A DNA stretch of 63,999 nt, filler included, from Streblomastix strix (Eukaryota): the NCBI GenBank assembly GCA_008636045.1. It is 4 parts of 4 records of this genome, joined end to end, with 100 filler letters (N's around TTAATTAATTAA, not from the genome) between each part and the next. Parts side by side here need not be neighbours in the genome. Positions count along the whole stretch, not along the records: positions 16,054 to 32,005 come from SNRW01000902.1; 3 more parts are not named here. One strand, given 5' to 3'. Below, in pieces: positions 873 to 53,854 of this stretch. Made by a program: the position numbers and the translations under genes. The notes beneath the pieces are model-generated. The model worked only from the letters and a program-made list of their open reading frames with translations, was not told the DNA's origin and did no database searches. The number at the start of each line of letters is the position of its first letter. Position 1 is the first letter of the stretch.

Positions 873-1313
873 ATTTAAATAAATTTACTATAATCATTAG
901 AATATGATATTAATATATGTATATGATATATATGTATGTAATATTTTTATAATTCAATCAATGTTAAGTTCCGGCTGTATTTAATTTTATTAACATTTTT
1001 TATTTATAAGCATATAAAAGGAGTTTGCGATCTAAATTAATATTATGCTAACTTTTTTGTTACTAATAGCTATTATGTTATATTATATTATTTAATTACC
1101 ATATCTGTTCTTAATGCATTCTAATAACTATTTATGATCGTCAATAGAAACTTAAAAAATAAAAAAAATTTTTTTTTTTGATTTAATTTATTTGTCTCAT
1201 AATATTATATTAGTCCATATATGTAGTTATTATATAATTATTAATGTTTCATATTGCAATTGTTTACAGTTAGTTAAGTTTTAAAGCACTATTCTTAAAC
1301 TTGATCTATTCAT

Positions 1314-4300
1314 TCAAGAAATAAACTATAACTAATCAATAAGAAGAATTGAAGTCGATGCAATATCTTCATTCAAGCTTTATGCATATTATCGAATAAG
1401 ATTCAACGGCACAGCTTCTTTTACTACTTATTATGTTTCTTCTGTTCCAATATTCAGTAAATTAAGAACAAGTAATAATCCATGATCGATGATTTTATGA
1501 TTATTGCTCTACAAATATTTCATTATAAGATTCACAAACTCGCCAGTAGTGATATCAGTGTGATTAGCTTAATAATAAAATAAATAGTATAAATAAATAA
1601 AATATTAATAAATTAGACTTCTTTATCAAGAAAAGTATATGTTAATTCTAATAACAATTTAGGATTTGATATTTACCTTTACATTCAGCAAGTCTCGACA
1701 GAACAAGAGAAGATGATTCAATTAAATATTGAAAATTATCATCAGAAATTTCCTTCAGACATTATATCACAGAACTTCTGAATTCATCAGGAATTTTCAG
1801 AGCTTTGCAAAGTTGGCCAATTAAGAGTGCACAAAATTTATTTATTTTCCTATTTTAGATGTTATTATTCCGGAAGATCTTGACAATCTGAGCTAACCCC
1901 CCATTGTTCTCTAAAACTTTTTGAAGATCATCTTCTTGCTGAATTATTCCTGTCTAATTCATTTGTATGATAATTATACTCAAGAATTATGCGATTCTAA
2001 AAAGAATATTTTCACCTTTATTTTCCATAAGATGAATAAGTGGCATAATATATTTCTCTTATTTCAACTTTAGTTTTTGAGAAGATGTTGTACTTTTTAT
2101 CAGATTACGAAGAATATCAATAAATTCCACTATTATTTGATCAGATGAAATTGTTTCATAGAATCTGAAGAGCTCATCGATGAATTGTCCAGTTTCCAAC
2201 TCAATTTAAATAACTTCTTCAAATCTTTCAAACAGTTATTGCGCTACTCTAAGAGATGCAAGAACTAATCCTCCTTTTTCAATGATGTTTTCTCTTCCTT
2301 CTTGAAGAACAACTGTTATCTCACTCATTATTCTATCAACATCAATATTATTATTTTATTCCTCATCATTGATCATATTCTCGATCATTTTTTAATATTT
2401 TTCAAATTTCATCATTGATTCATGATTATAAATATATGAGAATAATGTAATAATGTTTCTCCTAACATTTTCATCTTAATGTTTTATTAATTCTCTTATG
2501 AAAGGATTTTAAAATTCTCTTTTTATATTATTTCGAGTTTGATCAGAACCAACTTAAACAATAGTCTTTATTATTTCAATTAGTTTAATTATATATACGG
2601 AAGATCCATTTGTTCTATTATATATAATATATGAATTAAAAATAATTTTAATTGTATGAATAAATTAGTTAAAATTCTATAAAATTATTATTTTATTCAA
2701 TAAATACTTAATGATCTAAGCAATGTTCGAAACGAAACTATTTCCAAGAATTTCAGAGTGGTTGCCTAAAGTTATAATGAATTTATAAAATTTTTTTTAT
2801 AAATTATATAATAATAATAAAAAAAAAATTATTATTAATTAAGAATATCAAAAATTATTTAGAATGTTTGAAAACCAGCATTTTGTGCTAAATATTGCAA
2901 TGTTTTTATAGCAGCATTTTCTGTACTTTAATTAGAATCATTAAGTAGATCTTTGAGATGGTTGATTATTTCAGTTCTCATGATTTAATCAGTTATTTCT
3001 TGTGAACGATAGATAAATCCAATTAATATTGCAGACATATCTTTAATATCTTTATTTATATTTCTTTGAAATAATTGAAAGATTTTATTGATTCCTCCAA
3101 TTGTTGATATTTAATCAAAATGAGGATGCGGTGTGGAAATTGAGGTTGAATAATTACCTGAAAGTAGAATAGTGTAAATTGAATTAATTGAATTTTTAAT
3201 AATTTAATTGTCTGGATGATCTAATAATCGGATAAGACCTTTGTAATGTTTCTGATTAAAGAGAAGTAATCTAACACTATTAACAGATAATGTTAATTAA
3301 AAGAATGCAAATGAGAAATTATGAGTGATGGAGATTAATTAGCGACTTTCAAAGATATTTTATAACGTTTCTGATATTTTCATTCTAATAATATTCGTTC
3401 TCAATTCATCATCATCAATTTCTTCTAATCCAATTGAAAGAAGAATACAATCATTATCTTATACTTTTATTATCTAATTCATTTCTTCTTCATTTCCAAT
3501 TAATGGTTTCATAAGATCTTATTAAATCATCAAAAGTTGTTCTTCATTCAAAATTTCATTTCGATTTACTATCAAATTCAAATAATGAATAAAGAAGAAA
3601 AAATGTTAATTAACAATATAAAATATTTAATAAAAACGAAAATATATAAAATTTAATATTAGAATTTAAGAATAAATAGAATAATTTATAATGATGGAAT
3701 ACCAGCATTTTGTGCTAAATATTTCAATGCATTTCTTGAAGTAATTATGTTAAATTAATTAGAATCATTAAGTAGATCTTTGAGATGGTTGATTATTTCA
3801 GTTCTCATGATTTAATCAGTTATTTCTTGTGAACGATAGATAAATCCAATTAATATTGCAGACATATCTTTAAAATATTTACTTAGATTTCTTTGAAATA
3901 ATTGAAAGATTTTATTGATTCCTCCAATTGTTGATATTTAATCAAAATGAGGATGCGGTGTGGAAATTGAGGTTGTATCAGTTCCTGAAATTAGAATAAT
4001 GTATATTGATTTAATTGAATCTTCAATAACTTAATTGTCTGGATGATCTAATAATCGGATAAGACCTTTGTAAGGCTTCTGATTAAAGAGAAGTAATTTA
4101 ATATCATTATCTGATATTGTTAATTACCAGAATGCAAATGAGAAATTATGAGTGATGGAGATTAATTAGCGACTTTCAAAGATATTTTATAACGTTTCTG
4201 ATATTTTCATTCTAATAATATTCGTTCTCAATTCATCATCATCNNNNNNNNNNTTGTTAATTACCAGAATGCAAATGAGAAATTATGAGTGATGGAGATT

Positions 4301-16053: not shown

Positions 16054-16315
16054 TTCCAAGTTCATCAATAGATAATTGCTTGCAAATATTATTAAGTGAT
16101 TTTTTATTGATTAAATCTATAATTTAAAAAATTGGCTATTTTCTGAGAATTTTAAATAATTCTATATGATAATAAGTTAATAAATTAAATATAAAATGAA
16201 ATAATTAAATAAAGAAAAAAAGATTGAAGATAGAAAGAAATAGATTGATAGGAAAAAATAAAAATTAAAAAGAGAATAATTAAACTTAATTAATCTAAAA
16301 TTAGCAAATTTATTC
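16054..16315. repeat. Direct repeat copy A (copy B at 23162-23423)
   Basis: TTCCAAGTTCATCAATAGATAATTGCTTGC...TTAGCAAATTTATTCT is near-identical at both sites. Confidence 0.9.
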
Positions 16316-17548
16316 TTGATTTCTTTTAATTTCCTATTTCACAAATTTGTTTCATTTCATTTATTTTTCTTTTCTTCATTCCAATAAGTTTTCTTTCTCT
16401 TTGCCTTTCTTTTATTTTCTATTCATTTTCCTCGTAATATTTATTCAATTTTTAATATTATAAACCATTTCAATTCTAGCTTAATTATCTACAATTTTTC
16501 CTTTTATTTCAATATTTTATCCTTTAATATTAATTTTTATATGTTATCCTTCTTTTGAAAAATCGGTTATTCTATTTTCATTTATGTATTAATTAACATT
16601 TGAAGAAATATCATTATATAGTTTAATTTATTCACCATTATATTGTAGTAATAATCCTTCAAAATAATACTTTTCTTAATTAATGAAATTTTTAAATTAG
16701 TTAATGTTTTCATTTATTCCATTAGAGTCAATTTATTATTTATTATTATTTAAATGGATACTGAAGTATTAAATTCCAGGAAATTCTCTCTGTTTATTAT
16801 TTTCAAATTCTTATTTCATTTTCTTATACTAATCATCAATACTTCCTCTATTATAATATTTATCTCCTATCCTTTCTAAATATTACATTCTGTTGTTATT
16901 TTTAGTAGTACTGAAGTGAATCAATGAAAAATCATCTTCATTAACAACTTAATCACAATTTAATAATCCTTTCTAACAATTTTCTAAAATTATATATAAT
17001 GATTTCTTATTATTTATTTGATTTCCTAATGTAAAATCAACAGCTTAGCCCTTTACATGTTAAGAATTACTAACAGCTTTTTTTGTATTTCTATTTAATT
17101 CTTCATCCCTAAATCCACTTAAAATTTGAAGTGTTATTTATTTATCATTTTCAAATAATTTTGAATTTAAGCATAAATCATATATCTTATCGACTTGTTA
17201 GGCAGTAAATAATAAATTATCTTTTTATTCTTATGTTGTTGGTTTGTTGTCAATTCCAAGTTTTTCTGCATTTAATGACTTTAAAAAATCATTTTCTGTG
17301 AAATGCTTTGAAAATTTGAACTAATTATTTCTGTTAAACTAAAGTATATCTGCATTTAATATATTTGTTGATGTTTACTAATTATAATCGTAATTATATA
17401 ATTCAATATATTTGTTCTGATAATATAAATTCGCGTTATTAAGCGGTATATTATCATATATAAATGAATTATTGAAGTTAGACTGACCAGCATAGACTTG
17501 ATGTATCAGATCCAGCATAATACAAGACAGCACAAATAACATCATCAT
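16280..17548 (-). CDS. Hypothetical protein with N-terminal signal-peptide-like segment; possibly a pseudogene (in-frame TGA near 16445)
   Basis: Begins MMMLFVLSCIMLDLIHQVYAGQSNF.., followed by a long frame under TAR=Q. No recognisable domain. Confidence 0.4.
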
Positions 17549-18316
17549 TCGTACTTAAATAAATTTGCTGAATAATTTATGAATTATAAATAAGTAAATA
17601 TTGCTTGATGAATATATTAAAATGCAAAAATAAAAATAAAATCCACTGAATTTCTCATTTTATTGTGAAAGAAAATATTATGGCATTTTTGCTGTTAAAA
17701 TAATCGTACTGTAAATGGTTATAGTTGGATATAGCGCTAATGAAAGTGCGGTACAAATATGTAATATGCTATTATTGATAATGTTGTGAAAATATTGAAT
17801 TTAAGCAATATTTACATTTTCGGTTGGCACTATTATTTGAGGCTCATAAAGGTTGAAATTAGCTTAATATATAATAATAATATATTCATTACAAAATATT
17901 AAATTTGGGGAAATTTAAACTTTAAGATTTGGAAAATGAGCAGAATGTAGATGAACTCCTAATCACTAGCATTGAGATTTATAAAGTATTATATTGATAT
18001 TTTAAATTTTACTATTTCATTTTAATATATTGAATAATTCATCAATATATAAATCTCAAGAATGTGAATCGATGCAAAAAGCAGTTTTTTATTTTAAAGG
18101 ATAGAATTATTATCAGAGAAAATATGAGCAATTTAATGAAGATATCATTCTAATCTCGTATTATAACTTGAACTAAAATTAAGTTGATTGGATGTACTTT
18201 AATAGAATATGTTGATAATGAGATTACAAACCATAGATCTTATTAAATTTTACTAAATTGATATATAATGTTGGGTATTTATATTATTCAAATAATTATT
18301 TTAATAAAAATATAAG

Positions 18317-18352
<36 letters not shown>

Positions 18353-18479
18353 TTACATGATAATAAATATAAATATAATTAAATTATTATAATAATAAAT
18401 TATATTTTTATGTGTATTATTATACTAATCTAATTTAATAATTTCATATAAAACTTAAAAATATAACATTTGAGAAAAA

Positions 18480-20433
18480 AAGCAATACTCATCTTTTTCA
18501 TTCCATAATGTCATAACTCTTTCTTATCTATTTATATATGATTCCCTAAATAATGGAAGTAATAAATTAAAAAATATATAAATATATTTATATTTATGTT
18601 TATATTAGAAAATTTATTATTATTTATTTATATTCATATAAAATATACTGTCATTCAATGATAGATAATAGAGTGCAATTTTAGCAGATTCCTTTGTAAA
18701 GATATCTGAATTATTAAGAAGTGACTTGAGGTGAACAACAACATCTCTCTTAATTGAATCATCGGGAATCTCTCGATCTTTGAAAAGATAACCAATATAA
18801 ATGGCAGTTCTATCTTTTGCAATTTAATTATCATTATTCAGAAACAATTTAAATATCTTATTAATTCCATCAATTTCTGAAATTTAATTGAATTGAAAAT
18901 TTATTTTATCTTGAAGGTTTGATTTTACTCCATAATCAATCAATTATATTAATGAGTTTAAAATATTGTTAATAATGAGATTATCTTTGTGATCAAGAAG
19001 ATGGAATAATCCAGAGAATGGATGTGTATTCAGCAATAGCTGTTTGTTTTCATTATTTGTAACAGATAATTAGTAGAAAACTTCTGAATATTCTAATATA
19101 ACAGTGTTGAGATCTTCTAATTAAAATATTTAAAGAAGACCATCGACAATTCCAGATTCAATTATCATTTTTTTTCTTTCATTATTTTCTTTTGCTTAAA
19201 GAATTGTTGAAATTAGGATACTATCGCAAGTTTACTTAATTTCAACTTATTAATCTTTTATTCCATTTTTATATATTTATTATTTCAGATCATTTGCAAT
19301 TTAAACCAATAGATAGGTATCATGTAAAATACAATCAATATTACCTAAAATAAAATATAATTATTAAAAATTTAAAAATAAAAATAATTATTATATGTTA
19401 ATAAATAAAAAAAATTAGTCTATAATAAATAATTCTATAATGTCTTTTGATAAACATACCTTCATTAAGCGCTAAATCTGTAAGTGCATTAATAGCTAAA
19501 GCCTGCTATTATAAATCTGCTTCGATTGCAATTTTCTTCAACAATGTAATTATCTCCAGTTTTATAGATGCATTTGGAATCTCTCTAGCCCGATATAACC
19601 ATCCAATACTAATAACAGCTTAATAAGTACATTGTTGACTTTAATTTGAATGGTGAAAATATGTAAGAAGTCTTTCAATTCCATTACATTTTTCAACTTC
19701 TTCAAAATGTGGATGAAATTTTGTACCTAAAATTGCATTTGACCCTTAATTGGCTAATAAGTAAATTGAAAAAATTGCATTTCTAATAATATTGGTATCT
19801 TTGTGCTAAAGAAGACGAGTGAGGCCATTATATGGTTTCTTTTCAAACAATAATTTTAAATTTTCTTAATTTGAGATTGCCAATTCAACAAAAACTGTCG
19901 TATAGATCTCTGTAATAGTCTAAAGATCTCGATTTTCAAAGATATTAATTAGACCTTATGCAACTCCTACATTTATTGCTATTTTACGAAGTTTGAGATC
20001 TTTGTCCTCTTTGAACTTTCGTAAAAGAAGTTTGCAAATATTTTCTTATTTCTCTTGAATATCCTTTTTCTATTATTCAGTTCCTATAAATTGTTCTTGT
20101 AGTTATTAGGAAATCGTAACCCAGATTTGAGGTAATTATTCTTTTTCATTTTCTTGCTTATTTTCAATATTTTATCCAATAATTTCTCCTTTGATCATTG
20201 AAATATTTAAAAGAATGATAAAAATTGTAGATATGAATATCTCATTCCCTTTGGATTGTCTATTTTGTATTTTGAGATTCTAAACTCCCATAAGTTGTTT
20301 CATCACCTATAAAATAATATAGATTAGATAAATAAAAGAAAAGAGTAACTTTGCAACACACTTGAGTGCAAATCACTTGTATGATGTGAAGATAATGATT
20401 ATATCTATTTGTTTTTCTTTCAAATTTACTCAT
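18480..20433 (-). CDS. ARM/HEAT-like repeat protein of the same family as the repeats at 2870-6230; ends uncertain
   Basis: Two repeat exons: KPYNGLTRLL..HPHFEEVEKCNGIERL..IGWLYRAREIP and DRTAIYIGYLFKDREIPDDSIKRDVVVHLKSLL. They resemble the repeats in the first kinase. Confidence 0.6.
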
Positions 20434-21221
20434 TTCTAAAATAAACAAATAAAAATATATATTTATGATTCTCTTATAAAATTAAAAATACAAATTTAAT
20501 ATATTTAATCATCAAATTATAGAATTAAATAAGTTTAGATTTAAATAGTGCAAAATTTTCTGTAGCGTATAAATATGCATATGTCAAGTGTGCAGAAAAA
20601 CTGTATGTGCTACAATAGCTTTGATCAGCAAGAAATTTAGCTTGAGATAGCAGAGAAAATATTACATTATTATTATAATTTTTTTAAAGATTTAAAGCTG
20701 CGAGATTCAGTCACTGCTTTCGATTATTTAATTGAGATTTTATTTAATGATTATATTCATGCAGTTATAATACTGTTTCTTATCACAAAATTGCTTTGCA
20801 GTGACAAAAACGAGTTTCAATTAAGAATCTTGCCAAAATGTCATATATTAATCAATTGATTTTATTTTAAGTTTATATTATCATATTCCCCATTATATTA
20901 CATTGGTGTAAAATAAAGAAACTTGCAGCCTCCTCTTAGATTGCCTATAGATTTTTCCAACTAGTTTTTAAGGTGAAAATTTTTTCACTTATCATATATA
21001 TTCAAATTGATCATAATAAATTAACTTTTCTATCAAAAGCGATTGGAAATTTACGCTTTCAAAGCTTACAAACCAACAAATTAAAAAATTTGTTAACAAC
21101 TCCTGTCTTGCTGAAAATAATACAATAATTTTTTATGTTTCTTTCTTTCTTTTTATATAGACAGTTTTTTAGAAGTCATGATATTGATATTTGTCTTACT
21201 CATTTCATAATTCGTGAAATT

Positions 21222-22857
21222 AGGATTTTGTGACGATATTCTCCTCGCATCTTCATATTTTCATGATTTATTCTTTCCAATATGGAACGAAAAGATACAT
21301 TCAATCACAGTTTCATTAGAATAAACATCTCAGTTCATATCTTCAGATTATTATTCTCATGAATATATGCACGAATAGTTATAACCTGTATCTATATAGA
21401 TCAAACCAGAATTTTTACGGCCAAACTAAATTTATGATAAATAGTTTAATGAATTGGTTTTGTTTAAGTGGAATCATTCAAAAGAAAATCAAACCTTAAA
21501 AGATAATTATTGGAACTCGGTTTCGTAAGGAGGAATTAGAGATTGTTCTCTTATATCGGCATTAATTGCCATGGCTATGATGGAAACACATCGAAATCAA
21601 CAGTTGATTAGTGATAAAATATATCCGAGAGATTCTGGGAATGTGGGAGTATATAATCCAAGTGGTTAATATCGATTGCGTTTGTTCATAAACGGATGTT
21701 GGCGAATGGTTGAGATAGATGACTTACTTCCTTGCTTCCCATTGCCAGTAACTTTGGAGAGCGATTGGAATACACGTGTAATAATGTCAGCAAGTAGTAC
21801 TATTAAAGGCGAATTGTGGGTTCCATTACTTGAGAAGGGGTATCTTCGTGCATTAGGTAATGGATATGATTCTAAAAGTATTAATCCATTCGATGTTTTC
21901 TTTTCATTTTGTTAATGGATACCTTAAACATCGTGGAACCTTAAAGGAATCTTTGAAAAGGATTATGAGTGGAAAAAATTAGTAAGAAGAGTTAAATCAG
22001 ATAATATTCTTGTTATACTTGGAATATAATAAATTGATATGAATGATTAAGGACCATAACGATTCAACTTTATAACAACTCATTCCTATACTCTAATAGA
22101 TGTTGCTCAAATAGGGAATTCTAAGCTTTTTAGACTTCGTGATGCACACAGAAAAGAATAAGTGAGCAGAAAGTTTAATTCTACTACATTACTATAATAA
22201 TATGAAAAAAGGAATGATGGAAGCTTCTGGATTGATATTGAAGATGCTAAGAAATATTTTAGTATGGGATTCCTGAGTTGGCGACCCGATTTGTTTACAT
22301 ACAAATAACAAATCAACTTTGTTTGGAAGGAACAATAGTACATGCATGACACAATTGATGAACTTAGTCAATTTGCTCCATAATTTTTATTATATAAAAG
22401 ATCTAAAGAACAAAAGATATGGATCCTTCTCCATAGGCATTATCAAAGCAAAGTATCACCTTACAGTTTAATCGAATCAGAATAGAAAGAAGAAGATATG
22501 CTTATTAGTATCAGTTTCTGCCGCCACAATCATCCAGAAGAACGCCCTGTGAATCCAAAAATAACTCATCGAGATGGAAATATTTGTTTCTCATCCACAT
22601 ATTCAAAGAGCCATTTCAATTTATTTTAAATTGGTCTATTTGATGAAGATATTCATAAAACTGATTAGAATGAGTTAGGATTAAATGAAGTGCAATTACA
22701 TTTAGCAAAAATGTAAGAATTCACTTGTAATTATGTAGGTTGGTTCACCATTCGCGCAGAAATTTTAAAAGCTCCTGAGCATTCCAAAGGAGATCTCCGT
22801 TTCTCACTATACATTTTCTCTGATCAAAAGGTTGATTAACCCGTTCCTATTTATTGA
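21222..22857 (+). CDS. Calpain-like cysteine protease (calpain-7/PalB-like CysPc domain); 5' exons upstream (~20580-21220) unresolved
   Basis: FLRP, Q(TAA)GGIRDCSL, YNPSGQYRLRLFINGCWRMVEIDDLLP, ELWVPLLEKGY, THSY, LRDAH, DGSFWID. TGA at 22855-22857. Confidence 0.85.
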
Positions 22858-23161
22858 ACTTTAAATTATATTTAGCAATATAACAATTAGTAAATCATTT
22901 ATTTAATTTATTTTATAATAAATTTCAAACATTAACTAATAATTTCTTTATAAAAATTACAAATTCTAGCTGTTTGTGATTTTATTTGTCAATTTCTAAA
23001 CACCTATTTAAATAATCCCTGTCTTAAATAATTAGTTCTCAATTCAGAACAAATATAACATACTTCTGAAGATTCTTGTTTTGATGCTGAAAATTTTGTA
23101 TAAAGTATATTGATTACTCCAATAATTATAACATATAAATTATTTTACAGGTAAAAATAAG

Positions 23162-23423
23162 TTCCAAGTTCATCAATAGATAATTGCTTGCAAATATTAT
23201 TAAGTGATTTTTTATTGATTAAATCTATAATTTAAAAAATTGGCTATTTTCTGAGAATTTTAAATAATTCTATATGATAATAAGTTAACAAATTAAATAT
23301 AAAATGAAATAATTAAATAAAGAAAAAAGATTGAAGATAGAAAGAAATAGATTGATAGGAAAAAATAAAAATTAAAAATAGAATAATAAAACTTAATTAA
23401 TCTAAAATTAGCAAATTTATTCT
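23162..23423. repeat. Direct repeat copy B; homology ends at the start of the virus-like region
   Basis: Matches 16054-16315. Confidence 0.9.
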
Positions 23424-23506
23424 ATCTTACCTTATTAATCAATATGAACATGATTCCAGATAATTAATTTCATTTCAATGAAAATAAAAATAATATTTAA
23501 TAATTT

Positions 23507-24687
23507 TCACTGATCCTCAATAACATAATCATCTAAATCATTTTGAAACTCATATGGTAGTAGTCCAGCATTTTCTAATGTCTTTCCTTCATTAAATGTT
23601 GGTTTTTTTTCTTGTTTTTTTGTCATATCCTATTCATATGATCTCTATTCTCTTAGTCTTTTCTGATATCTTCTCAATTTAGATTCTTTAATAGCTTATT
23701 CTGTTGGAATAGTAAATATATCATCTCCATCAGCATTTGTACTGTCAGGGATTTCACCTAATTGTTTATTCCAAAAAAGTTGCATAACCTGTTTATATCA
23801 GTCTCATCATTTAATTTTCTTTTTACGAACTTTAACCATTTATGAAATATTGATTATATGCTTATTTTATTGCTTTACTCAATTTCTTATATATTGCTAA
23901 TGAAGTACCATCGCCTCCAATAAATGTTTATGCTTAATATAATTTATCATAATATTACAATAGCCATGGAGCAATAACTCCCTTCCATATCCTATCTCCA
24001 ATGACTGAATATACTTAAGCAATTGTATAGCCACGCTCTTTCAAAAATGGAGATAGATAATATTTGATGAAATGTCTATAGCCATCAGCTGGCTTATCTT
24101 CTTCTTTCCATGATTTATAATGTGTAGCTGCTCCGTCTTTTCTAGATGGATTTTCAGTGAAATACTTAGTTATTTTTTGACGCTTAAATGGGACTGTAAT
24201 TCTAAGTCTATCAGCTGATCGAATAAATCCGTTATTATCACGAACAGCAAACTCTGCAAATTTATCACCATTAATATCTTCTACTGTTTCATTCCATATA
24301 TTTTATTTTCTCTGTATCTTTTTTATTTTTTTACCATTCTTCGAATGAAAGTGGATTTGACCACATTTTCTTGAATTGAATATCTTTATTCTTACCGATC
24401 AAATCCATTGGAGGAGCATATGATTACTACTTTGATTGTACTAAAAGTTCATTTCTCTTCTTTGATGCTTATTCTTTAACTCTTTAATAATCATTATTAT
24501 CTATCAAATCTTATTTGTCTTTTATTTATGATGCTAGTGACGTCTGATATTTTTCATATGATAGTACCAATCCCTTATTTCCATTGTAATCTATATCAGG
24601 GTTTCTTGGTTTAGTACGTGAACGATATCCTAATTTATCTGCAACAATTAGTTATGAAGATCCACTTTATTAAGTTTGTTCACTCAT
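23507..24687 (-). pseudogene. Hypothetical viral protein, frameshifted
   Basis: MSEQTQQSGSSQLIVADKLGYRSRTKPRNPD... through ...FQNDLDDYVIEDQ*, intronless and disrupted. Confidence 0.5.
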
Positions 24688-24754
24688 TTAGTTTAGTTTA
24701 AGCAAAAAAATAGATATCAACTACACGACAATCATTAGTTTCAACTGAAAATAA

Positions 24755-25542
24755 ATGTCAAATCATTCATTGACGCAATATGTAAATGAATTACTAGAGA
24801 GTTAAGTCACTAATAAACATGAGGTATAAAGCACAGTTCACAAGGAAATTAACTTTACATATAATTCTATTAACTTGCTTATAATATAGAGAGAAAGCAG
24901 AAAATCTTATAATGTATTCAAAGAATTAATCAAATTGAGTTAGATTAAGAACTGTTATACATTATTTATATATGTTACTGATAGCAATAATGATTAAACA
25001 TATAAGAAGATGAGTATACTAATCAATATTCCAACAAAGATTGTCACTTATGGTGAGATTGATGGTGTACTTAATGACCTAATTGAGGCAAAAGCAGCTT
25101 ATGATACAGTTGTTGAGAAACATCTAATAAATTAACTTACATCAGATTCAAAGCAGGAAATACTGACTACTATTTGGAGCAGAGAATTTAAAAATGAAAT
25201 ATCCTCATACACTAGTTTTATTTGATGATACAACGTCAGTGTTCAAAAATAAGTAATTACCATTATTCAAAAAACTATTTAAGAACACATTAACCAAGAA
25301 TCACTTCTTTTCTATGCTTATAAGACATAATGGGTCTTGACGCAAGTATAACAGCTAATGTTGATACAATATACTTTTTCGGTGGATTCTATCGATAGAA
25401 GCTTAACTTATTTTATTATTAATCTTCTATATCATTTGATAAAGATAAAATATGGGAATAGTATATAAATTTAACAAAGAGATAAGCCTTAATAGCATAA
25501 TACAACAATGATGGAACAAAAGTATTGATACTAGACTCATGA
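24755..25542 (+). pseudogene. A32/FtsK-HerA-like genome packaging ATPase
   Basis: Degenerate Walker A region near 24890, Walker B HTLVLFDD, then FLCLQ(TAA)D..LDASITANVDTIYFFG, typical of A32-family C-terminal motifs. Frameshifted. Confidence 0.7.
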
Positions 25543-26525
25543 TTCTTTATCTAAATCATCAATTGAAATAATTCCTTTATCAACTAATACACTAATTAAT
25601 TTATCCAATTAATCATTTTCAATTATGCTATTATTTTTATAATGATATTTTCTCAAAGAGATTGCACCTTAGAGTTTAGTAATACAATACCCTTTGACTT
25701 TGAATGTCTTATTTAATTTTTATGTAGTCATTTAATCTATTGATTCCTTATTCAAAACAAGATACTATTTGAACTCATCAACTGTTTCAAATGTTACTAA
25801 CTCAGGTGAATACTTCTCTAATATCTTCAGATACGGTAATTTATTGTTTAATTTATTAACTACCTTCTATTTGCTGTCAAATATTACTAGACTCGTTTTA
25901 TTAGAAACAAATTCATAATGTTTAATCAAAATACTAAATAGATTTCAAGTATAAATGATATATTATTTTAATCAACTAATTCACCATCAATATTCTTAAA
26001 CCAAAATTATACATTTGTATCATGATTTAATTAGCAAAAGTGTTTATCTGTACATTTTTCATCACATTTACCTAAATATTAATCATCATCTTAATCTTCT
26101 TACATAATTGAAGCATGTAAATATAGATATTAACTAATTAATTACTTATTTGTTCTACATTATACAAATATTATCTCTCTATTATTTTTCGATGTGACAA
26201 ATTCCACAGTTAATTAAAACTGGTTAATCCCTTCATATGTTTGTATGGTTGAATTTTAAGTTAATATCATCCTTTTTTCTGTTAAGTTATGTGATCATTT
26301 TATATTCAAAAATAATTTCAATGAATAAGTTATTCTTATCTTTCAAGATAACTATCGCTTATACGTATTAAACCTGTCACATAATCTAAAATTATATATA
26401 AACTTTATGCTTATTTTTTTCTTAAATTCTACATTAAAATCTTAAATTTCTTTAGTTTTCTGTTGGTAATCGTTTTGTAGTTATATTTGCAGCTGTATAA
26501 GTATATCATATGTTTAATGATCCAT
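25537..26525 (-). pseudogene. Hypothetical viral ORF(s)
   Basis: Starts MDHQTYDILIQLQ.., with a C-terminal TTQKLNKTFKVKGYCITKLQG segment. Its stop overlaps the ATPase end in TCATGA (25537-25542). Confidence 0.4.
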
Positions 26526-26583
26526 TTTAGATTAGATAAAAAAATAATTATTAATATTGATTTTTTATCCTACAATCAACTCA

Positions 26584-26784
26584 TCATTTAGGTTGTTCTT
26601 ATATTTAAAGATAATCATCTGCTGTGCGTATTAAATATCGTACATTATCAAGCATTTGATTTAAATTTTATTCTTATTTTTTGTTTATGTCATTAAATTC
26701 TAAAATTTCTTTAGACTTTTATTAATGATCTTTTATCAGTTATAATTCTAGCTGCTTAAGTGAGTCATATGTTTATTTATCCAT
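26584..26784 (-). CDS. Small hypothetical viral protein (~66 aa), paralogous to the N-terminus of the ORF starting at 26525
   Basis: MDKQTYDSLKQLELQLIKDHQQKSKEILEFN.. versus MDHQTYDILIQLQIQLQNDYQQKTKEIQDFN..; both have the identical upstream TTTTTTATCTAATCTAAAATG. Confidence 0.55.
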
Positions 26785-26831
26785 TTTAGATTAGATAAAA
26801 AAATAAAAAAATAATTATTAATATAAATTTT

Positions 26832-28545
26832 TCATCCTTCAATCTAACTTATCACTTCATCAAATGTGTTTTTTACATCATAAACACATGATCCTCCATT
26901 AATAGGTCCAAATAGCCAGGAAGTATCATGCATTGCACGTAGAATTAGTGGAAGTAGTCTCTTACCAATTAGATCAACATTATAATAACAATCTGTATCA
27001 CCTTAACATATTGGTGCTCCTCTTAATTCTACTGATACATTTTAGTTTTGAGTATCTAATCCATGAAATATTAGTGCACCATTACTACTACATTCACATA
27101 AAAGATTGATCATGAAAGATGTAAGATCAGTGTGAGGATTCAATCTTCTTGAAGCAGTGTTTCTTGGTGTTGTGAGAGTATCATCGAATTCATCAGTTGC
27201 TTCGAATAGCAGGTCTAGGTTACTTGCATTCAATTACATTTAGAAGACTTATTAATCTGGTATATTTATTTGCATTTCAGGTAAATTTCTTCTACAAATA
27301 GTAACTTACATATTATGATATCTTGGACTTTCATAGCAAATTGCGGCTCTAGCATCTTTAGGAAATTGCAGGAATAAATCAGGAATATGAGATAATGGAA
27401 TATTTTATGATGTTCTAATTCTTATTGTAGTAGCACTTGTTGGAAATGACCATGCTTCAACTCTCTGTGAAGGTACAACAAATGGTCCATTAGCATAGAA
27501 TTCACGTACTCTTTATAAACAGTCATCTGTTGCCTGACATCCACTCATATTAGCTGTTACTTCAGTTACAACGTAATTCTTTATTGATAATGTCACTGGA
27601 CTAATACTACACATCAAATTCTTCAAACCACTATCTGTTATTTATTCAATACTTATTTTGGTAATAAGATCTGCAATACATCCCATTTGAGTGAATTACT
27701 TTATATATTGATATCAAAGACTCCAATTTTTAAAGAGTAGATCAATGTTCTTCAGTTTATCGGGGGCCACTAGCAATAAGATCAGTTTTATTCATAATGT
27801 AGTATTTAGCCATACTGATAATTGGATTCACTTATGCAAATACAAATGAGTTGGGATTAATTTTAAATCTAATTTTAAGATCATCGAATTGTGAATTAGG
27901 ATAGTCAGTAAACCCACTAAATACAAGGATATCATCTAATGAAATTGATAATCTAAATATAATTGGCATAGTGTATGGAATAGAAACTTAATCTTTAATA
28001 GCTTTTTCTATTTCTCTTATTGTTACATAAGTACCACAAGCTGATGTATCATATTTGTGTATATTTTCATACAATGAATGAATGTGTTTTCTATTATTTT
28101 TCTCATTTCGCGGTTTAACAGTGTTATAGATAAATTATTCGGTAGTTGAATCATTCTGCAACGTTCCATCAATAATACGTCCTCTATGATAAATAGTATA
28201 TTCTCTTATAACTTAACTAGCTGATTTTAATTTAATGAACATTACAGTTCTATCTTTATAAGATTCTTCAAATCCTTCAAATTTGTTTTCAAACTGTACA
28301 TTAGCTGTGAGTACTATTGAAAGGAATGAATTCTGAATTTATTTTACATCATGATCAGTGTCAGATAAGCTAATTTAAATTTCCTTATCGAATAGTGCAG
28401 GCATGTAGCTCTCCGGTTTGATTTCTTTGATTGAATAATGGTGTTCTCCATCATTTTTAAATGCATCAACAGAATTACTTTTTAAAGTTGCTTCGATAGT
28501 TCCGAGTTATTGCAAATGCTTTTAATTATTGAGAAATCGGTTCAT
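26832..28545 (-). pseudogene. Putative major capsid protein (double jelly-roll) of a Polinton-like virus; in-frame TGA at 27714-27716
   Basis: ~570-codon intronless ORF MNRFLNNQKHLQQLGTIEATLK..NSFLSIVLTANVQF..SASQVIREYTIYHRGRIID..FRLSISLDDILVFSGFTDYPN..DLKIRFKINP. Size, beta-strand pattern and position beside ATPase and fibre genes suggest an MCP; the fold is inferred, not confirmed. Confidence 0.6.
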
Positions 28546-28611
28546 GTTTTATTTGAAGCAAAAATAAACTAATCATATTCAATAAGTTAAACTTTGAATT
28601 GAAAAATTTTC

Positions 28612-29017
28612 AAAAATCTTCTTCACCAATTTCTTGAATACAATATTGTGAATCACTTATAACTTAATTACTTGGAATCGCAAGATGAGTTCCCATAGCT
28701 TTATTTATATTTCTTGAGACATTCGGATGAAATCTAATGAATCTATTATTTTGAATTGACTATCTTACTCTAGGTTCATCAATGAAATTCCCTACGTCAT
28801 TTTCAAAATTTGTCATGTTAGTCATTCTGTCTTAACCGTTATTTGCATATATTAAATCTAAACCACTTGACGCAGCTTATAAACCTCTACTTATTATAGA
28901 TGGAGCGAGGGTATCGATATATGGTTTAAAGGGTTTATATACATGTTAATTTGCCCAGTTAGCTCTTTCACCAATTTTCTGTGCTATCTATTTGATTTTA
29001 TGAAAGATTCCAGCCAT
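28612..29017 (-). CDS. Small viral protein with amphipathic N-terminus
   Basis: MAGIFHKIKQIAQKIGERANWANQHVYKPFKPYIDTLAP.., an open frame of ~135 codons under TAR=Q. Confidence 0.55.
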
Positions 29018-29039
29018 TTCATTTACGAAAAATAAACAT

Positions 29040-30679
29040 CTTTAAATGATGATTCGTATTAAGTTCATACGAAATAATTTCCACTAACATAATAATTAAC
29101 AAATTTATCTGCTTTTAATTCTGATGATATATGAATATGCCAGCGAGCAGAATTATCTGTATCAGCAACAGTAAGATAAGCGGAAGGAATGTCTTAAATG
29201 GGATCTGTGTTGAAATCATATAAAATCATAACAGGAAACAATAATGTCCTTTTTGGATCTATTGACCCACTCATACTAAGTAAATACTGATTAGCTTCAA
29301 TAAACCGTTTCTATCTCAAATGCATATTGAACATTACTAATTTATTAACAGTATTATCAATAATATAGATCTTAAATTTATCTAAGTCATATGGGGTATA
29401 GGCTAATGCAAGTATTTAATCTCTTGATACTTCTGTTACTGTATATCATGGAAATACAGATGGTGGAATAGGCATCGGTGGTAGTATATCATGTTACATG
29501 ATAACACTATCTATATGAGAAATTGGTTATTCATTTGATGTTATGTTACTCTAATTTGATTCTTGTGGTTGTGGATCAATTAAATAACTTCCACTAAAGT
29601 CATATAAATCCATAGGATAATACCAAAATCCTTAATTCACAACAACTTCCGGTGTATCATTTCCATTAATCTATATCATGCCAGCGAATGATGTATAGGA
29701 GGTCATTATTGGGACGAATTTAGATAATCTAGGTTAAAAATCAGAATATATTGTTTAAAATACTTTGTATACATTATTTACATGTTAACTACTAACTTCA
29801 GCTTAGAAATGAAATGTACATATTAGTCCTTCTTTAACAAAATAAGAAGCTCTAAGTGGAACAAATATTTAATTATTCACTAATTTAGTATTGTTATTGA
29901 AATAATTAGATAATAAAACAGGTTAACTTGGATCATTTGGTTGAATTCCATCACCAATTGCTTCCTTCCGTTTTTACACAACATCTTATACCAATGATAT
30001 TGATTTCATTCCATCAATAATAGAATTGACATGCCAATCGTCTACAATTTTAATCATTCCATCACTTTACATCACTAGTTGATCTCTTTAATGGCTCATA
30101 ATCCGTATAGTAAACACCTGCAATTGCAATATGAGTATTTCTTTTAATTGATGTAATTTAATCAACATTCCCAATTGATGATCCAATATAAAATCCTTTT
30201 TCACTAATGTTTCTCATTATATTTTGTTTATGCCCACCGTCATCTCCTAAAACTAATGCTTGTTTACTAAATGGTCATAATTCTTCAGGAAATCTACTGA
30301 ATCCAAACCCCATGAAATCTTCTCTAAGATACAGTCCAATGTTATATACTACTTTATTTCTCAACTTATGGAATTTAATCTATCCGTCATTGATATTATA
30401 CGGAAGTAAGGGTTGTGTTAGTGTACATAATGGTACTGTTATCACCACTGCAGCAACAGGTATTGGACTTATTAGTGTTGGAGGAGGAGATTAAACACTT
30501 AATTTATCGTTATTATCTTCCACTTAATCTTGAAGATATTATGGTCCAACAATGATTTAATTAGTTATTCCATCAACAATTGGTTTAGGTTCACGCTCAT
30601 GAATATAAGTATATAATTCTGGGACTACTAATAGACCTGTGGCGTTAAGTAATGCTTCATCAATGTATATATTTCTCAT
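29040..30679 (-). pseudogene. Putative virion structural/receptor-binding protein (Pro-rich, beta-rich repeats)
   Basis: MRNIYIDEALLNATGLLVVPELYTYIH..QIKFHKLRNKVVYNIGLYL..FSRFPEEL*P. The pattern resembles phage receptor-binding head domains. Disrupted. Confidence 0.45.
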
Positions 30680-30795
30680 TTTATAGTCCAAAAATAAACA
30701 ATTTCATTGTTTGCCAATGGTAATGCGAAGTCTTACATTCTTTCAGGATTAATAGTAATAGATTTGTTTGATAAGTATTAAAAATAGACTTATTA

Positions 30796-31945
30796 TCAAA
30801 GCATCCAACTAAATTATACACCTACTACATCATTAATGCCCCATAGTGTTGATGAATCGGTAGATATTCGAATTTATCTAGTTGCTAATCCTCCAATTAA
30901 AGTTATTTGCCTTGATACTATTGAAATAAGATATACTGCATTTGCTGATGTTGGAGGAGTTATGATATTTCTCAAACTTCCAATTGTACAAACATAAGTA
31001 TTAGTTGCAACATTAATTTAAGTTTTTGGTTGAAAATCCATCATTAAATGATAAAAATTTCCTATTCGAACAAGTCGTAAATAATTGAAAGTAATATTTA
31101 AATATAAATCAACGACTAAGTTTGTAATATCTTCCACTTATACTCCTCCAAATGATGATAATAATCTATCTCCACCGCCAGCCAATAAGCCTGATGTATC
31201 ATCTTTACTTGATTTAATAAACTAATTTACAGTTAGATTACCACTAATAGAACCGCTATAGATAGATGAAACAAATTCACTTTTCACTGCTCTTAATGTT
31301 ATATAATCATCATCTGATGGCTCTGGGTATAGTTAGTCAAGTGTTGTTTTTCGTAAAATTCCTTAAATATCTTATACATCACCATCTTTTTTACATAATT
31401 TGAATCATCAATTGTGGTAGTGAATTCTGAGATTGGTTTATTTGATCCATTCGCCAATAGTTCTTGCAGATTTGTTCCGCCAAATTTTACAAATGCAGGT
31501 GCATTAACATTTCCAGTAAAAAATTTTACGCTTAATACTTATTATGCAGCTGCTGAATTATATGTAACATAATTATCTTCCACATAGCTTCGAGTTATAT
31601 AATCTTCATCATCTTCAGAAATATCACCTGCTTTATTACCTTTTCGTAAATAACCTTCAATTACTTATAAATTTTTACCAGTTTTCTTATCGAATACTTC
31701 ATCGATACTACATTTTGTAGCATATTATCTAGGTTATAAGTAATTAAATGAATCTTTACTATGTGATATTATTAAATTTCCTGCGATATTTTATGTTGCT
31801 TATCTTACTTCCTTCACATAATTCGAATCATCAACGCTACCACCGAACTCAGCTATTGGTTTAGTACCACCAGCTCTAAGTAAAACTACAGTATCATCTG
31901 TTCCTTATTTGATAAATGATGATCCTGTTACTGACGACCTCCATC
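30796..31945 (-). pseudogene. Phage tail fibre-like protein, C-terminal part
   Basis: Repeats SFIKQGTDDTVVLLRAGG, GNVNAPAFVKFGG and GNLTVNQFIKSSKDDTSGLLAGGG, then a beta-rich C-terminal domain ending VQFSWML*. Confidence 0.6.
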
Positions 31946-32005
31946 AATGGAATTTACAAATCTACAACTATTATTGAATGTCTTATTTTCATTTATTGTC
32001 TATGA

Positions 32006-49398: not shown

Positions 49399-52300
49399 AT
49401 GACAGCCAGTTGACGCCGCAGACGACGTAATCAACGCCGATATTAGCCTCCGCAATCATAACCTCCAGTAAACAAGGCAAAAAACAATAAAAACTGCACA
49501 AATTATCAGCAGTTTTAACTGATGCGTGATTTGTTATCGCAAAAGCTGCGTAATCAACAGCAAATTCGGTAAGCTAAAAATGCGCCGACCAAACCGCCCG
49601 CAACGTCAACAAGAAATTAACCTAAAGAAACCGTCGAAAATTAATCTAGAAAATAGCGTCGCAAACTTTAATCAGAATCTGGCAAACAGCAAAATAAGAA
49701 ACGTAAATAACGTAAATCAACAAAAAAATAAGAAAAGAAATAGATGTGCGATTAGATGAACCGTGAAAATTACTTATCTTGAATATAACATTATGAACAA
49801 AGTTTAGATAAAAATTCTCGAGAAATTCTCAGGAAAAACTAAGTGTAAATTCAAGATCTCATCGATTAATAAGGAGACTCCGTTTTAGAACTAGTTTCTT
49901 CTGGCGATACCGAGTTTATGATATTATCTAAGCCGCTTAATATGTGTTTGCTTACTTAAGCAATTAATGAAGCAAGAACCCGAAACAGTGGAATTAAATT
50001 CGATTTTCATAATTTAACTGATACAACTGCAATAACTATTGATTTCTGTCATAATGATATCCATTAGCTGGAAGATATTGATAAATTCATTGAATATATG
50101 TATTCACATGAAAAAGGAAGATTTTTCGAATGTACTTTTGACTTTGATGTCAGTAATGAACATAAAGAAATGCCAGAAAACATGAAGGAATTACTTAAAA
50201 ACAAGAAATTTATTCATAAACTCTAATATTTTGACGGGCGTTACTTAGTTACTTATAGAATTAAACTTTCTGATAATAATTTCAGTTAATTACATGCTCC
50301 AATAATTCACTTCGACAGAAATTCAATCGATATTTTCAAACAATTCGTACGTTTATCAATTTTATTTATGTAAGAGATCGGAGAACTAACTGATACAAAG
50401 GAATTGATTGTCGCAATCTTTTCCATGTAATTTACATCTAACAGACTACCTTTTCCAGGCAAATATATGGAAGAATTGATTAAAATTCATAAGAAAAAGA
50501 ATATTATCAAATATATAGATACTGACGATGATTATAACATCTGTTTCTAGTATAATATAACATGCGTAACTATACCTGATGCGAAAAACGTGAAAATTGA
50601 TAGACATAAACGAATTGCAGTAGGTAAACGTTTGTTATTTTCCTTTTGCGGAAATCCAGAACAAAATTAACGTAAATTTCTCAAAGAATATCGAGGATTT
50701 AATTGAAATGATGCAAATTAAGTTGCTAAAAAATTCAATTTAAATATCAATTATTATGAATACGTCTGCAAAGGATTCGAAGATGATATTTAAAAACCTA
50801 AATATTAACGATTAATTTAATATCCTGATATATAAGTTGAAGGACGAAAACCTTATAATATTCTCTTATTAAATGATAATATTGACAAATAACATATTAT
50901 ATATATTATAAATATCGAGAAACTGATTGGCTTACTTATTTGTACAATCTGCAATAATCAAGCAATCTATGCAATTGATGAAAATAGACATGTTTAACGC
51001 AAAATGGACGATTATCTTAAAGAATTCATGATGAATCTTGGAAATTCAAATAAATAAATAAGATTAGGGAAGTTTCCAAAACCATTTTTACCGCATATTA
51101 CATCGAATTAAACTTATAAATATCATCTTCCACACAATCGATTATACGAATATAAACCAACATAATATTGTATAATTTTTCTATTTTACTCACTATTTCA
51201 ATAAGATGATGAAATAAAATTCCTTTTAATCAAACATATTTCTGTTGCATCGGTAACTAAAACAAAGTTAAGAATAAATAGATGCTATTTTGTATGTAGC
51301 GATGCAAGTTTCATAGATTGTAGGTTTGATTATCTATTTACATATGCAAATTAGATTAAAATCGATAAAAAATACTCTGATGAGGTACCATAACGGTATG
51401 AAGTATTTGTTATCGGATTTGATTTGCAGATAACGTTAAAGACATTGATTTTCAGAAATCTTCGATCGAAGAACTATGAAATTGTCGATTTTGTTGTGCA
51501 AGCATCATCTTCTAAATATTTTATAGTAAAACCAATTGAAAAATATCTAGAAATCATGATAAAAACAAGATTAAAACGTAATATCCATTCGTTTTATGTT
51601 TCTTGATGCAAAGAACTATTTAGTTGACAATATTTCCTTTGCGAAATTCATGGAGGACGTTGGTTAAGTTAACTTTTAAGAAAATGATAGCCTTAAGGCC
51701 GGCAATGGAATTGCTATTCTCGAATAATCAAAATTGATAATAAATTCCATCGATATTTTAATAAATCTATATTTCAAAAACAAAATTGACTTATTAACGA
51801 ACATTTCACTTGCAGAACTTGCTTGTCTTGAAAAATATTTTTATGTTTATAAGAATTTTGATATAGATTACTCTTTAAAACGCTAACGTATTTAATATGC
51901 ACCATAAATCGACGAGCAAACATTCAATATAACAGAGAAACAATAGAAATATAAAGTGGAATCTTATAAAAAATTAGACAAACTAAAAAAATGACGAACA
52001 GATCACAATATATCTGATTATCATCTGAAATATTTTCAAGATTTATTCATTTCTTCTTGTTGTCACATTTGTAAAACAAGATTTGTTTATAAAAATCTGC
52101 GAACTATTGACAGAATAGATAATGAAAAATTACATACAAAAAACAAACGTTAAGCCTTGTTGTCTTTACTGCAATAAATATGCGTCAAAAAAAGATAAAA
52201 ATCTATGTCGATTTACGATCTAATAACGTTAATTTACATAACTTAATCATCTAGCAATGATTATTTCTGATTAAGATGTTTATAAAATCTTACGGAACTG

Positions 52301-53795
52301 TATGATAGGAGGAAATTCGTACGTTATGCTCAGAGAAAATATTTTTTGATTAATGCCAATTAACAAATTTAAATATAATTCTCCAGATAAAACAGTTCAT
52401 TCCATCAATTTGCCCCATATCCTATCGCATATATCATGTTTTGATTTCAATTCCTTTTATCCTTCAATAATGAGTTCAAATTCGCATTTTCTGATTCCAT
52501 ACGCAAATCATAAGATGTATATGCCTGGAGATGTAACTTCAGTAACTAAAGATGAATACAGAGCAAGATAAATAATTTATAATGAAAATAAATTCTCTTA
52601 CGATGAGGATATCATCGAAAACAAGGTTTAATTGTTCATTGCAATTGTTAAAGCTCAAATTCCAGAAGAATTTATCAATGAATTTATGGATTTTCCTGTA
52701 AATTGGTGTTATCTTAAGATAATATTGAATAAACGAACCGTCGGGGAATATATTTATAAAAATTTTATTGAACATCACATGGCATGCGATAAAGAAGAAT
52801 CAAAATTACTTATGTTATTGTCGACGCATAATGAATTCATAATTTTTACCAATTAATACTTATAGTTTCTTATAGATAGATGCCATCTTGTTATAGATGA
52901 AGTACAATAAATTAATACATAAAGTAAAAATACTTCATTTCATGAATTCGTCAATGAAACTCATAAGTATAGATGTGATGTATTAGCTGCTGGAAATTAA
53001 AACCTGGAATTAATGTTTAAAACAAAACTGAATGCATCAATTAGTTATGACACATTGCATACTGAGAAATTTTCAGATATTAAGATATGATACAGATAAA
53101 ATCTTGGAATGTGCCATATGCTAAATATATTTAAGTAAGAAAGAAATTAAACTGATAGTTTTTCAATTGTTGAGTTAGAATAGAGGTAATGTTAATACTC
53201 CACATCGTTTTAAGTTGCTTATTTCGTGATGGATAATTCCAAATATTTTTATCTTAATAATTTCAATACTTTTCTTGTTCCATATCTTGACATGAATAAA
53301 ATACATGTAATTTATGGTGATACAGACAGTTTATGCTTAGAAATCGCAGATAAAAATTTGCCAATTCTGTACAAAAAATTATTGAATAAATTTTATCACA
53401 AATTTTTCCAAATTTCAGATTAAATTCATGAAATGAAGATATTACTTGGTTTGAATATTGAACATCAAGTAATAACTTGCTTTGCTTTAGTTTCTAAGTG
53501 TTATTATTCAGTTACATAAGATAACGGTGAAATATTGAAGCTAAAGGGGTTTAATTAGTTGCAAAATTCCAATATTTTACGGAATTCTTTTATCAAAAAT
53601 ATTTATGATGATTATCGCACTGAATTAATATGGAAATTTGTAATTCAAAAATAAGGTTTAATGTCAGAAGTAATATTAAATCGTGTTAGAATTAACGGAA
53701 TTAATACAAAAACAATAGTTCTTAAAAATCAGTCATGCGCACCTCTGTTGTATGGAATTAAAGATGGTAAATATATAATTGATGAATCGCTTTGA
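49399..53795 (+). pseudogene. Protein-primed family B DNA polymerase (Polinton-type)
   Basis: Motif A CFDFNSFYPSIM, motif B FKTKLNASISYD, motif C IYGDTDSL, then SKCYY and KLKG. N-terminal DYNICF..HIIY and CxxC; endonuclease VII-like insert. Many frameshifts and TGA stops; start approximate. Confidence 0.92.
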
Positions 53796-53854
53796 ATGAG
53801 CAGCTTTTAATCCGTCATTTATTATCTTAAATTATTTTTGCATAAACTTATAAA

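Follow-up and report, generated by a model that had tools for sequence, protein, structure and literature searches.

The closest described system is the MMN (Metamonada) capsid group of Bellas et al. 2023 PNAS (PMC10120064; cluster MMPC_40), for which 820 capsid genes were reported in the termite-gut protist Streblomastix strix. In the text passages and tables considered, that paper deals with the S. strix capsid gene and leaves its neighbours aside. Two S. strix proteins, KAA6381728.1 and KAA6401509.1, are given there as confirmed MCPs (Table S5), and a third, KAA6394011.1, was modelled and matched Sputnik 3j26_A in Foldseek with an E-value of 2.6e-12 (Table S3). Trichomonas vaginalis Maverick-Polintons carry an MMN capsid too, with about 32% identity to S. 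strix members (Table S5, PMC10120064). In the same source, DUF4106 is taken to be the capsid gene of T. vaginalis, and phage-tail-repeat fibres were reported for these elements (PMC12220804). No Pfam DUF4106 match was found for any S. strix protein scanned. A literature search for Streblomastix with capsid or Polinton, with most subscription papers and bioRxiv supplements outside its range, returned only PMC10120064, and no paper titled on the small genes of this module was found.

Extent and borders of the viral block

The window, i.e. the whole stretch of 63,999 nucleotides analyzed here, contains a decayed and truncated capsid-gene module derived from an MMN endogenous virus (Table 1). Very probably, this block is the broken capsid module of a Maverick/Polinton-like element, one of hundreds of copies. 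Its ancestors, while still intact, likely formed icosahedral particles from a capsid protein predicted to have the double jelly-roll (DJR) fold. A preceding sequence-only reading had described a compact, intronless block to be translated with code 6, the morphogenesis module of a poorly characterised metamonad virus. The compact code-6 block was recovered at 23414-32005, and the capsid, ATPase and beta-rich genes align to their relatives without any intron. The morphogenesis role is supported, with a divergent capsid of predicted DJR fold that travels with its ATPase. The novelty implied by "poorly characterised" was overstated: the family corresponds to the MMN group already in print, for which a model of a nearly identical S. 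strix protein appeared in 2023. The main genes listed in that reading are present; four conserved ORFs had been missed, among them the penton-like one at 25926-26270.

Table 1. Features of the viral block and its left border, in coordinates of the window.
Position	Strand	Feature	Basis
23162..23423	+	Host repeat broken by viral sequence	Second copy 16054-16316, 98.5% identical
23414..32005	.	MMN-group endogenous virus fragment	Depth step, GC, N run
23507..24302	-	Conserved element gene	Frameshift ~23776; parts of P0062, P0104
24289..24735	-	Conserved element gene, start probably 24687	64% identical to ATPase-fused part of P0076
24755..25542	+	Likely genome-packaging ATPase, ~262 codons, pseudogene	Motifs in relatives, capsid linkage
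25537..25902	-	Small conserved ORF	40% over 67 aa, E 1.8e-9, to ORF near capsid gene in distant locus L014
25926..26270	-	Likely penton, a minimal minor capsid protein with a single jelly roll; 114 aa, open frame	
26318..26857	-	Tandem duplication, ~265-nt unit	74% identical copies
26832..28545	-	Major capsid protein gene (MMN group, predicted double jelly roll), pseudogene	Frameshift ~27765, stop 27714-27716
28610..29017	-	Small ORF, basic amphipathic N-terminal helix	Frame open from 29068; homology places the start at 29017
29065..30679	-	Beta-rich gene, ~537 codons, pseudogene	65-81% identical to P0028, P0053, P0067
30796..32005	-	Likely fibre gene, 3' part	Aligns to P0059, P0053, P0047 (E to 2e-28)

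The left border of the block is marked by a depth step at ~23414-23444, and the GC content is 0.28 in the block compared to 0.24 in the flank. The right edge is the contig end, with an N run from 32006. The host repeat on the left reaches at most 10 nt beyond the point where the viral alignment begins. In other copies of the virus, the contigs match from 23414 onward and extend leftward with one common, different sequence (seven contigs, X1; also X2 and X3). Position 23414 was considered as a natural end of the element and rejected, since these contigs continue past it. The left edge cuts through the element, which is joined to host repeat DNA, and neither natural end is present in the contig. 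The summed contig depth was 3,755-26,875 across the block and 20-130 in the flank; this value is not a copy number, and the three runs represent one sample, which may be the window's own source.

The block shares one contig with the host repeat and with calpain and ARM-like genes, and is written in code 6. This code is supported by the residues opposite the window's standard-code stops: in three standard-code relatives, glutamine was the commonest (16 of 50 positions), while the next commonest residue was found four times. TAR accounted for 20 of the 32 glutamine codons in the capsid gene and 26 of 38 in the neighbouring calpain gene. The four largest genes of the block all carry breaks, and the small ORFs retain open frames. 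The same gene order, from the fibre through the beta-rich gene and the amphipathic ORF to the capsid, recurs in fused gene models.

Capsid gene and putative packaging ATPase

Searches with the capsid gene gave matches with E-values down to 1e-144, and 65 of 67 were S. strix proteins. Each of its two halves shares 59-73% identity with KAA6381728.1 and KAA6401509.1. The identity to KAA6394011.1 is ~88%, a manual count giving 30 differences over 252 positions. A single ORF of ~570 aa had been proposed here; the joined length fits relatives of 562-570 aa, but the gene lies in two frames and the stop within it is an in-frame TGA. No significant match to the capsid was found in Pfam, PHROGs or PDB sequence searches, nor any sequence match to a solved capsid. 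None of the pattern matches in viral contigs (142 and 69) or prokaryote genomes (132) was a relative. A metagenome scan resulted in 14 loci from 160 matches, all 1.4-4.4 kb. The MMN family is broad, because the capsid profile matches 640 cluster representatives, many of them S. strix fragments.

The capsid fold was predicted for the relative P0004 (open frame, 85% identical to the window copy; pLDDT 92.6, pTM 0.91) and not for the broken protein of the window itself. With this model, Foldseek matched the iridovirus capsid (E 1.5e-13) and the mavirus and Sputnik capsids (~2e-12). The value for Sputnik, 2.1e-12, agrees with that published for KAA6394011.1. Structural alignment (VIA) gave best Z scores of 19-21 to DJR capsids, among them PBCV-1 1m4x (Z 19.9, rmsd 4.2, 353 aligned) and iridovirus (~20), with mavirus and Sputnik lower at 16-17. 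The sequence identity in these alignments is only 8-11%. The divergent DJR capsid suggested for 26832-28545, with a fold comparison as the way to check it, is thus supported through the model of a relative, and the gene is an MMN capsid gene of predicted DJR fold, now a pseudogene. In the subfamily tree, which is star-like, the window copy has the longest branch (0.129 compared to 0.03-0.08), a comparison biased by the use of 90%-cluster representatives of 555-562 aa as relatives.

The ATPase gene lies in three frames, with breaks at ~25180 and ~25280. Its Walker A motif reads IIQRESRKS and is damaged, compared to IGQRGGGKT in P0069; the relatives also show a Walker B motif LVLFDD and a downstream R..Q motif. 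No significant Pfam or PDB profile match was obtained. Of 51 other ATPase records, 10 have a capsid gene as neighbour, compared to a chance mean of 0.23 and a maximum of 4 in 20,000 draws; one such pair is the neighbour of the published model KAA6394011.1 itself. The other 41 records have no listed capsid neighbour, the capsid list comprising 119 of the published 820 genes. Two further pairs on contigs of 1.2-2.3 kb were dropped, as equal contig size alone was rejected as proof of linkage. The predicted co-occurrence of capsid and ATPase in other copies was therefore found. Judged by its motifs and genomic context, the gene likely encoded a genome-packaging ATPase; the earlier label "A32-like" draws on the same motifs and context, no family match being significant.

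The proposed distinction from the element on contig 4 holds as far as tested: the window outside 26832-28545 gave no capsid-profile match, and no likeness was detected between the two ATPases.

Small, beta-rich and fibre-like genes

At the left of the block, 23507-24302 is 72-83% identical to parts of two fused models, P0062, which includes the capsid, and P0104, which includes the ATPase; it had no Pfam match. Homologues of 25926-26270 are found directly downstream of the capsid gene in three loci (L005, L008 and L010; E 1e-6 to 6e-8). Its Atlas neighbours are all viral, the nearest named one being PF21507 V18-19 (19% of members, low recognition score). The model has low confidence (pLDDT 53) and aligns end to end with the mavirus penton (Z 6.1) and with a PBCV-1 capsid chain of 167 aa (Z 6.3). 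Scores in the same range were obtained for a fibre domain from Bdellovibrio (Z 6.8) and for nucleoplasmins (Z 5.8), so that this weak model gives Z 5-6.8 to pentons and other jelly rolls alike. No Foldseek match among viral structures was found at E 0.001, and the profile had no PDB match. The product is likely a minimal penton. The adjacent duplication contains a small ORF (26584-26835), whose second copy is decayed, and the depth is lower there.

The small amphipathic ORF noted before was found again at 28610-29017. Related N-termini occur in the fused models P0017, P0029 and P0114, and similar but not alignable ORFs lie beside the capsid gene in L007, L009 and L014. The amphipathic moment of 0.54 was equalled or exceeded by 8% of 178 background ORF starts. 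By analogy, the product is possibly a membrane-lytic core protein; cupiennin-like genes (10.1101/697771) and "Macc" genes (PMC11071296) are described analogues for a small membrane-active ORF.

Two fibre-like genes had been suggested, and two long beta-rich genes are indeed present, one of them with fibre support through P0059, but for 29065-30679 a fibre is unproven. The latter is one gene with a frameshift at ~30070 and stops at 30275 and 29446. It had no significant Pfam, PHROG or PDB match and no usable Atlas match, its structure neighbours reaching a TM of only 0.20-0.26. A row of fibre-head domains was tried as an explanation and failed, all 28 profile pairs remaining below 4% probability. 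A structural role is possible.

The gene at 30796-32005 has frameshifts at ~31940 and ~31390 and breaks off where the contig ends. In P0059, the repeats, most of which lie beyond the portion retained in the window, resemble a tail fibre chain of L shape (8hqz_d, E 6e-5) and the tail fibre phrog_10305 (E 5e-4). With moderate confidence, the gene can be regarded as a fibre gene through its relatives. A tblastn search of 50,697 phage records did not establish an origin of the fibre from bacterial phages; two queries gave no match and P0059 one match of 57 aa.

Origin of the block and comparison with known systems

By analogy with Polintons, virophages and adenoviruses, capsid trimers of the intact element would form the facets of the particle and the 114-aa jelly roll the pentamers at its vertices. 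The ATPase would pump linear DNA into the particle, the fibre with its repeat shaft would bind the host and the amphipathic protein would breach a membrane on entry. The window copy may stem from one insertion burst followed by decay, its left part presumably lost by the join to host repeat DNA, and would be unable to make particles.

The retained 8.6 kb lack a polymerase, an integrase, a protease and terminal repeats, so that the half of the element for replication and integration does not appear; among the ORFs of this partial block there was no Pfam protease match. This composition would also fit a capsid-only satellite without its own polymerase and integrase, copied and inserted by a contig-4-type element, which has both enzymes and no MMN-type capsid gene. 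None of 21 contig-4-type integrase records lay within 20 locus tags of the 119 capsid or 51 ATPase records on equal-size contigs, but this test has almost no power, with four of the 21 integrase contigs reaching 9 kb and ~15% of the capsid genes listed. The satellite is improbable: the block is cut at both ends while other copies extend leftward, the MMN capsids of T. vaginalis belong to related elements that are Maverick-Polintons, their number taken from polymerase genes (PMC10120064), and contig 4 carries ATPase-like and fibre-like genes itself. Very unlikely is the wider view that MMN viruses combine one of the smallest pentons of eukaryotic DJR viruses (a bare jelly roll of 115-145 aa) with an adenovirus-protein-VI-like membrane helix, and that the S. 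strix module, lacking its own polymerase and integrase, spreads as the satellite of another Maverick family.

The many relatives with open frames of 562-570 aa, the three or four capsid subfamilies and the still open small ORFs of the window could indicate that the MMN family is active or can be reactivated in its host, with breaks only in old copies like this one. As the relatives differ mainly by private changes on the star-like tree, and some of the gene models, several in number, are cut short or terminate out of frame, such activity is considered unlikely. It would concern the family and not the window copy. A host-domesticated gene cluster, or contamination by a free virus or the phage of a symbiont, is largely refuted and has a negligible probability. 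The mixed gut sample used as source and the phage-fibre-like repeats would suit a contaminant, but code 6 is used much as in the calpain gene, no relative was found among the viral or prokaryote contigs scanned, the assembled contig joins the block to a host repeat, and four genes are broken.

The preferred reading, a broken fragment of an MMN element, agrees with the group of Bellas et al. in organism, genetic code and protein family and differs in that the window copy is a pseudogene. The headline is not new, because the capsid family and its abundance in S. strix were already published; the modest additions are the likely penton, the conserved basic amphipathic ORF and the left edge cutting through the element. 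In contrast to the T. vaginalis Maverick-Polintons, the partial block shows no polymerase, integrase or terminal repeats. With animal Polintons/adintoviruses and virophages (mavirus, Sputnik), the element shares the predicted DJR capsid fold; its candidate penton, its likely packaging-type ATPase and, by analogy, its small membrane-active ORF would be further common features. No protease was found in the partial S. strix block. The candidate penton family, with 114-178 aa, is far shorter than the chains of mavirus (297 aa) or Sputnik (362 aa). Metamonad elements are left ungrouped in a 2026 preprint (10.64898/2026.06.19.733378); the gene order, the candidate minimal penton and the amphipathic gene, which is conserved to standard-code metagenome contigs, are markers for placing them.

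Capsid gene of the decayed viral block

The window consists of four contigs separated by N spacers, and the viral block lies within the second (16054-32005). The block is genuine, though decayed, and represents part of an endogenous virus whose group is already in print. Where the sequence-only reading described a compact gene block, the genes and their order were borne out, but the four largest genes are broken. Open frames are kept in two small ORFs.

Features of the viral block, the host part and related regions
Feature	Positions	Strand	Remarks
Fragment homologous to contig-4 polymerase region	66-893	−	35-57% identity; cut by window start
ARM-like repeat host genes, tandem array (contig 1)	2700-6442	−	~830-nt units, 82-100% identical
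ARM-like repeat host genes, related tandem array	18116-20372	−	
Host genes	left 7.3 kb of second contig		ARM-like repeats and calpain (Pfam E 6e-20)
Calpain-family protease gene	21178-22857	+	intron-free; directly left of viral fragment; between two 263-nt repeat copies; depth host-like
ATPase gene			two frameshifts, damaged Walker A
Penton candidate ORF	25926-26270		frame open
Capsid gene	26832-28545		frameshift near 27765, stop at 27714
Amphipathic ORF	28610-29017		frame open; basic helix at start
First gene read as fibre-like	29065-30679		one frameshift, two stops
Second gene read as fibre-like	30796-32005		two frameshifts; cut off by contig end
Contig-4 element	49783-59912		second decayed Maverick-like element
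Contig-4 PolB motifs	near 52500; near 53320		DFNSFYPS; YGDTDS
Contig-4 integrase	near 53796-55030		
Contig-4 ATPase-like gene	56431-57485		longer form
Contig-4 fibre-like gene	57974-59308		

With the N-terminal half of the capsid protein as query, 67 longer proteins were matched (65 from Streblomastix strix), and the profile search yielded 640 representatives at E 0.001. The open-frame relative P0004, 85% identical overall to the window protein, was modelled from 92 sequences (pLDDT 92.6, pTM 0.91). The best Foldseek matches listed in the PDB were all capsids (iridovirus, PBCV-1, mavirus, Sputnik and other large DNA viruses; E 1.5e-13 to 8e-10), and the search of predicted viral structures had a similar outcome. 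VIA aligned 353 residues with PBCV-1 1m4x (Z 19.9, rmsd 4.2); identity to the structural matches was 7-11%. Together, these matches make the double jelly roll a well supported prediction for this capsid protein, in agreement with the divergent capsid initially proposed here. In the public record P0324 ("putative flagellar associated protein"), one gene model combines a WD40-like N-terminus from the host with a capsid gene of the Metamonada (MMN) group, which shares 67-69% identity with the window.

Left edge, ATPase and contig-4 element

The host repeat match at the left edge runs to 23423. Alignment to other viral copies begins at 23414, and to the left of that point those copies run on into one common sequence that the window lacks. 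The edge is therefore not the natural terminus of the element but a join into its interior, with an overlap of at most 10 bases, and may have formed by microhomology-guided deletion. Summed contig depth in one gut sample, which is not equal to copy number, was 20-130 on the host part compared to 3,755-26,875 on 23502-32005.

A Walker A motif, Walker B motif and downstream Arg..Gln motif are the pattern expected of FtsK/HerA-type packaging ATPases. The ATPase relatives carry Walker B followed by the Arg..Gln motif; Walker A was seen in P0069 only, the other models shown beginning downstream of it. ATPase profile searches gave no significant match. Locus tags put 10 of the 51 other ATPase records immediately next to one of 119 capsid records (0.23 by chance; nine pairs on contigs of recorded equal length, one with length not recorded). 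In a locus-tag test of low power, none of 21 integrase records was near a listed capsid or ATPase record, and no replication genes were seen in the block.

Neither blast nor profile comparison linked the block ATPase to that of contig 4, and the capsid profile had no match there, no MMN-type capsid gene being detected in 49783-59912. The distinction of a second family thus stands as far as tested.

Probable minor capsid, amphipathic and fibre-like genes

The penton candidate ORF is absent from the sequence-only reading. Eight metagenome loci extend 500 bases or more beyond the capsid gene on its downstream side, and three of them have significant homologues directly after that gene; L011 and L012 hold further relatives, joined by alignment only. 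For one homologue, the Atlas matches listed were viral clusters only, the nearest named lead being the V18-19 family (low recognition score). The model is poor (pLDDT 53) and found no match in Foldseek. In a wide VIA search it aligned end to end with jelly rolls, including the mavirus penton (Z 6.1, rmsd 3.4, 108 aligned) and capsid chains of PBCV-1, EhV-201, PR772, Sputnik and PRD1; a Bdellovibrio fibre domain and nucleoplasmins matched equally well, and every Z was below 8. We regard the ORF as a probable penton. In the distant MMN loci L011 (1993-3062) and L012 (2516-3625), two adjoining small beta-rich genes (130 aa and 221-232 aa) follow the capsid gene; by eye both resemble single jelly rolls, which suggests two minor capsid proteins.

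Relatives of the second fibre-like gene give that label moderate support: it aligns to long repeat proteins, and their repeats resemble both an L-shaped tail fibre of a phage (E 6e-5) and a PHROG of tail fibres (E 5e-4). The first gave no significant match in Pfam, PHROG, PDB, Atlas or profile comparison, so its fibre label is guesswork. Its intact relatives P0028 and P0067 carry a DVNGDGKINIVD motif (window place about 30060-30090, minus strand), which we take to resemble a dockerin or EF-hand calcium loop; the region had no Pfam match. Phage-like fibres are described as common among Polinton-like viruses in the accessible part of PMC12220804.

Other subfamilies in S. strix also have the amphipathic ORF ahead of the capsid gene. 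Among five metagenome loci with enough upstream DNA, three (L014 and the near-identical L007 and L009) have a similar ORF next to where the capsid gene starts, encoded on the other strand. The moments of these ORFs are 0.68-0.70 and their charge is +7; no alignment links them to the window ORF, whose own moment is unremarkable (top 8%). In L007, an HNH endonuclease-like ORF (901-1482, minus strand; Pfam E 5e-5) lies between amphipathic ORF and capsid gene; it is missing from L009. A putative membrane-lytic role, which we consider evenly balanced, would liken the ORF to adenovirus protein VI and the adintovirus cupiennin-like genes, as far as these are covered in the accessible text of 10.1101/697771 and PMC11071296.

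Comparison with the published group

Named matches assign the sequence to S. strix, an oxymonad that decodes TAA and TAG as Gln. The endogenous-virus group itself is already known; the penton candidate, the amphipathic gene and the gene order are small additions. In the accessible text of a 2026 preprint the group is still unplaced (10.64898/2026.06.19.733378). The accessible part of Bellas et al. (2023; PMC10120064) defines the MMN group, places 820 S. strix capsid genes in one cluster and remarks on the genetic code in common. KAA6394011.1, modelled in its Table S3 with a match to the Sputnik capsid, is about 88% identical to the window N-terminal half (counted by eye), and the window shares 59-73% identity with two proteins from the set confirmed there.
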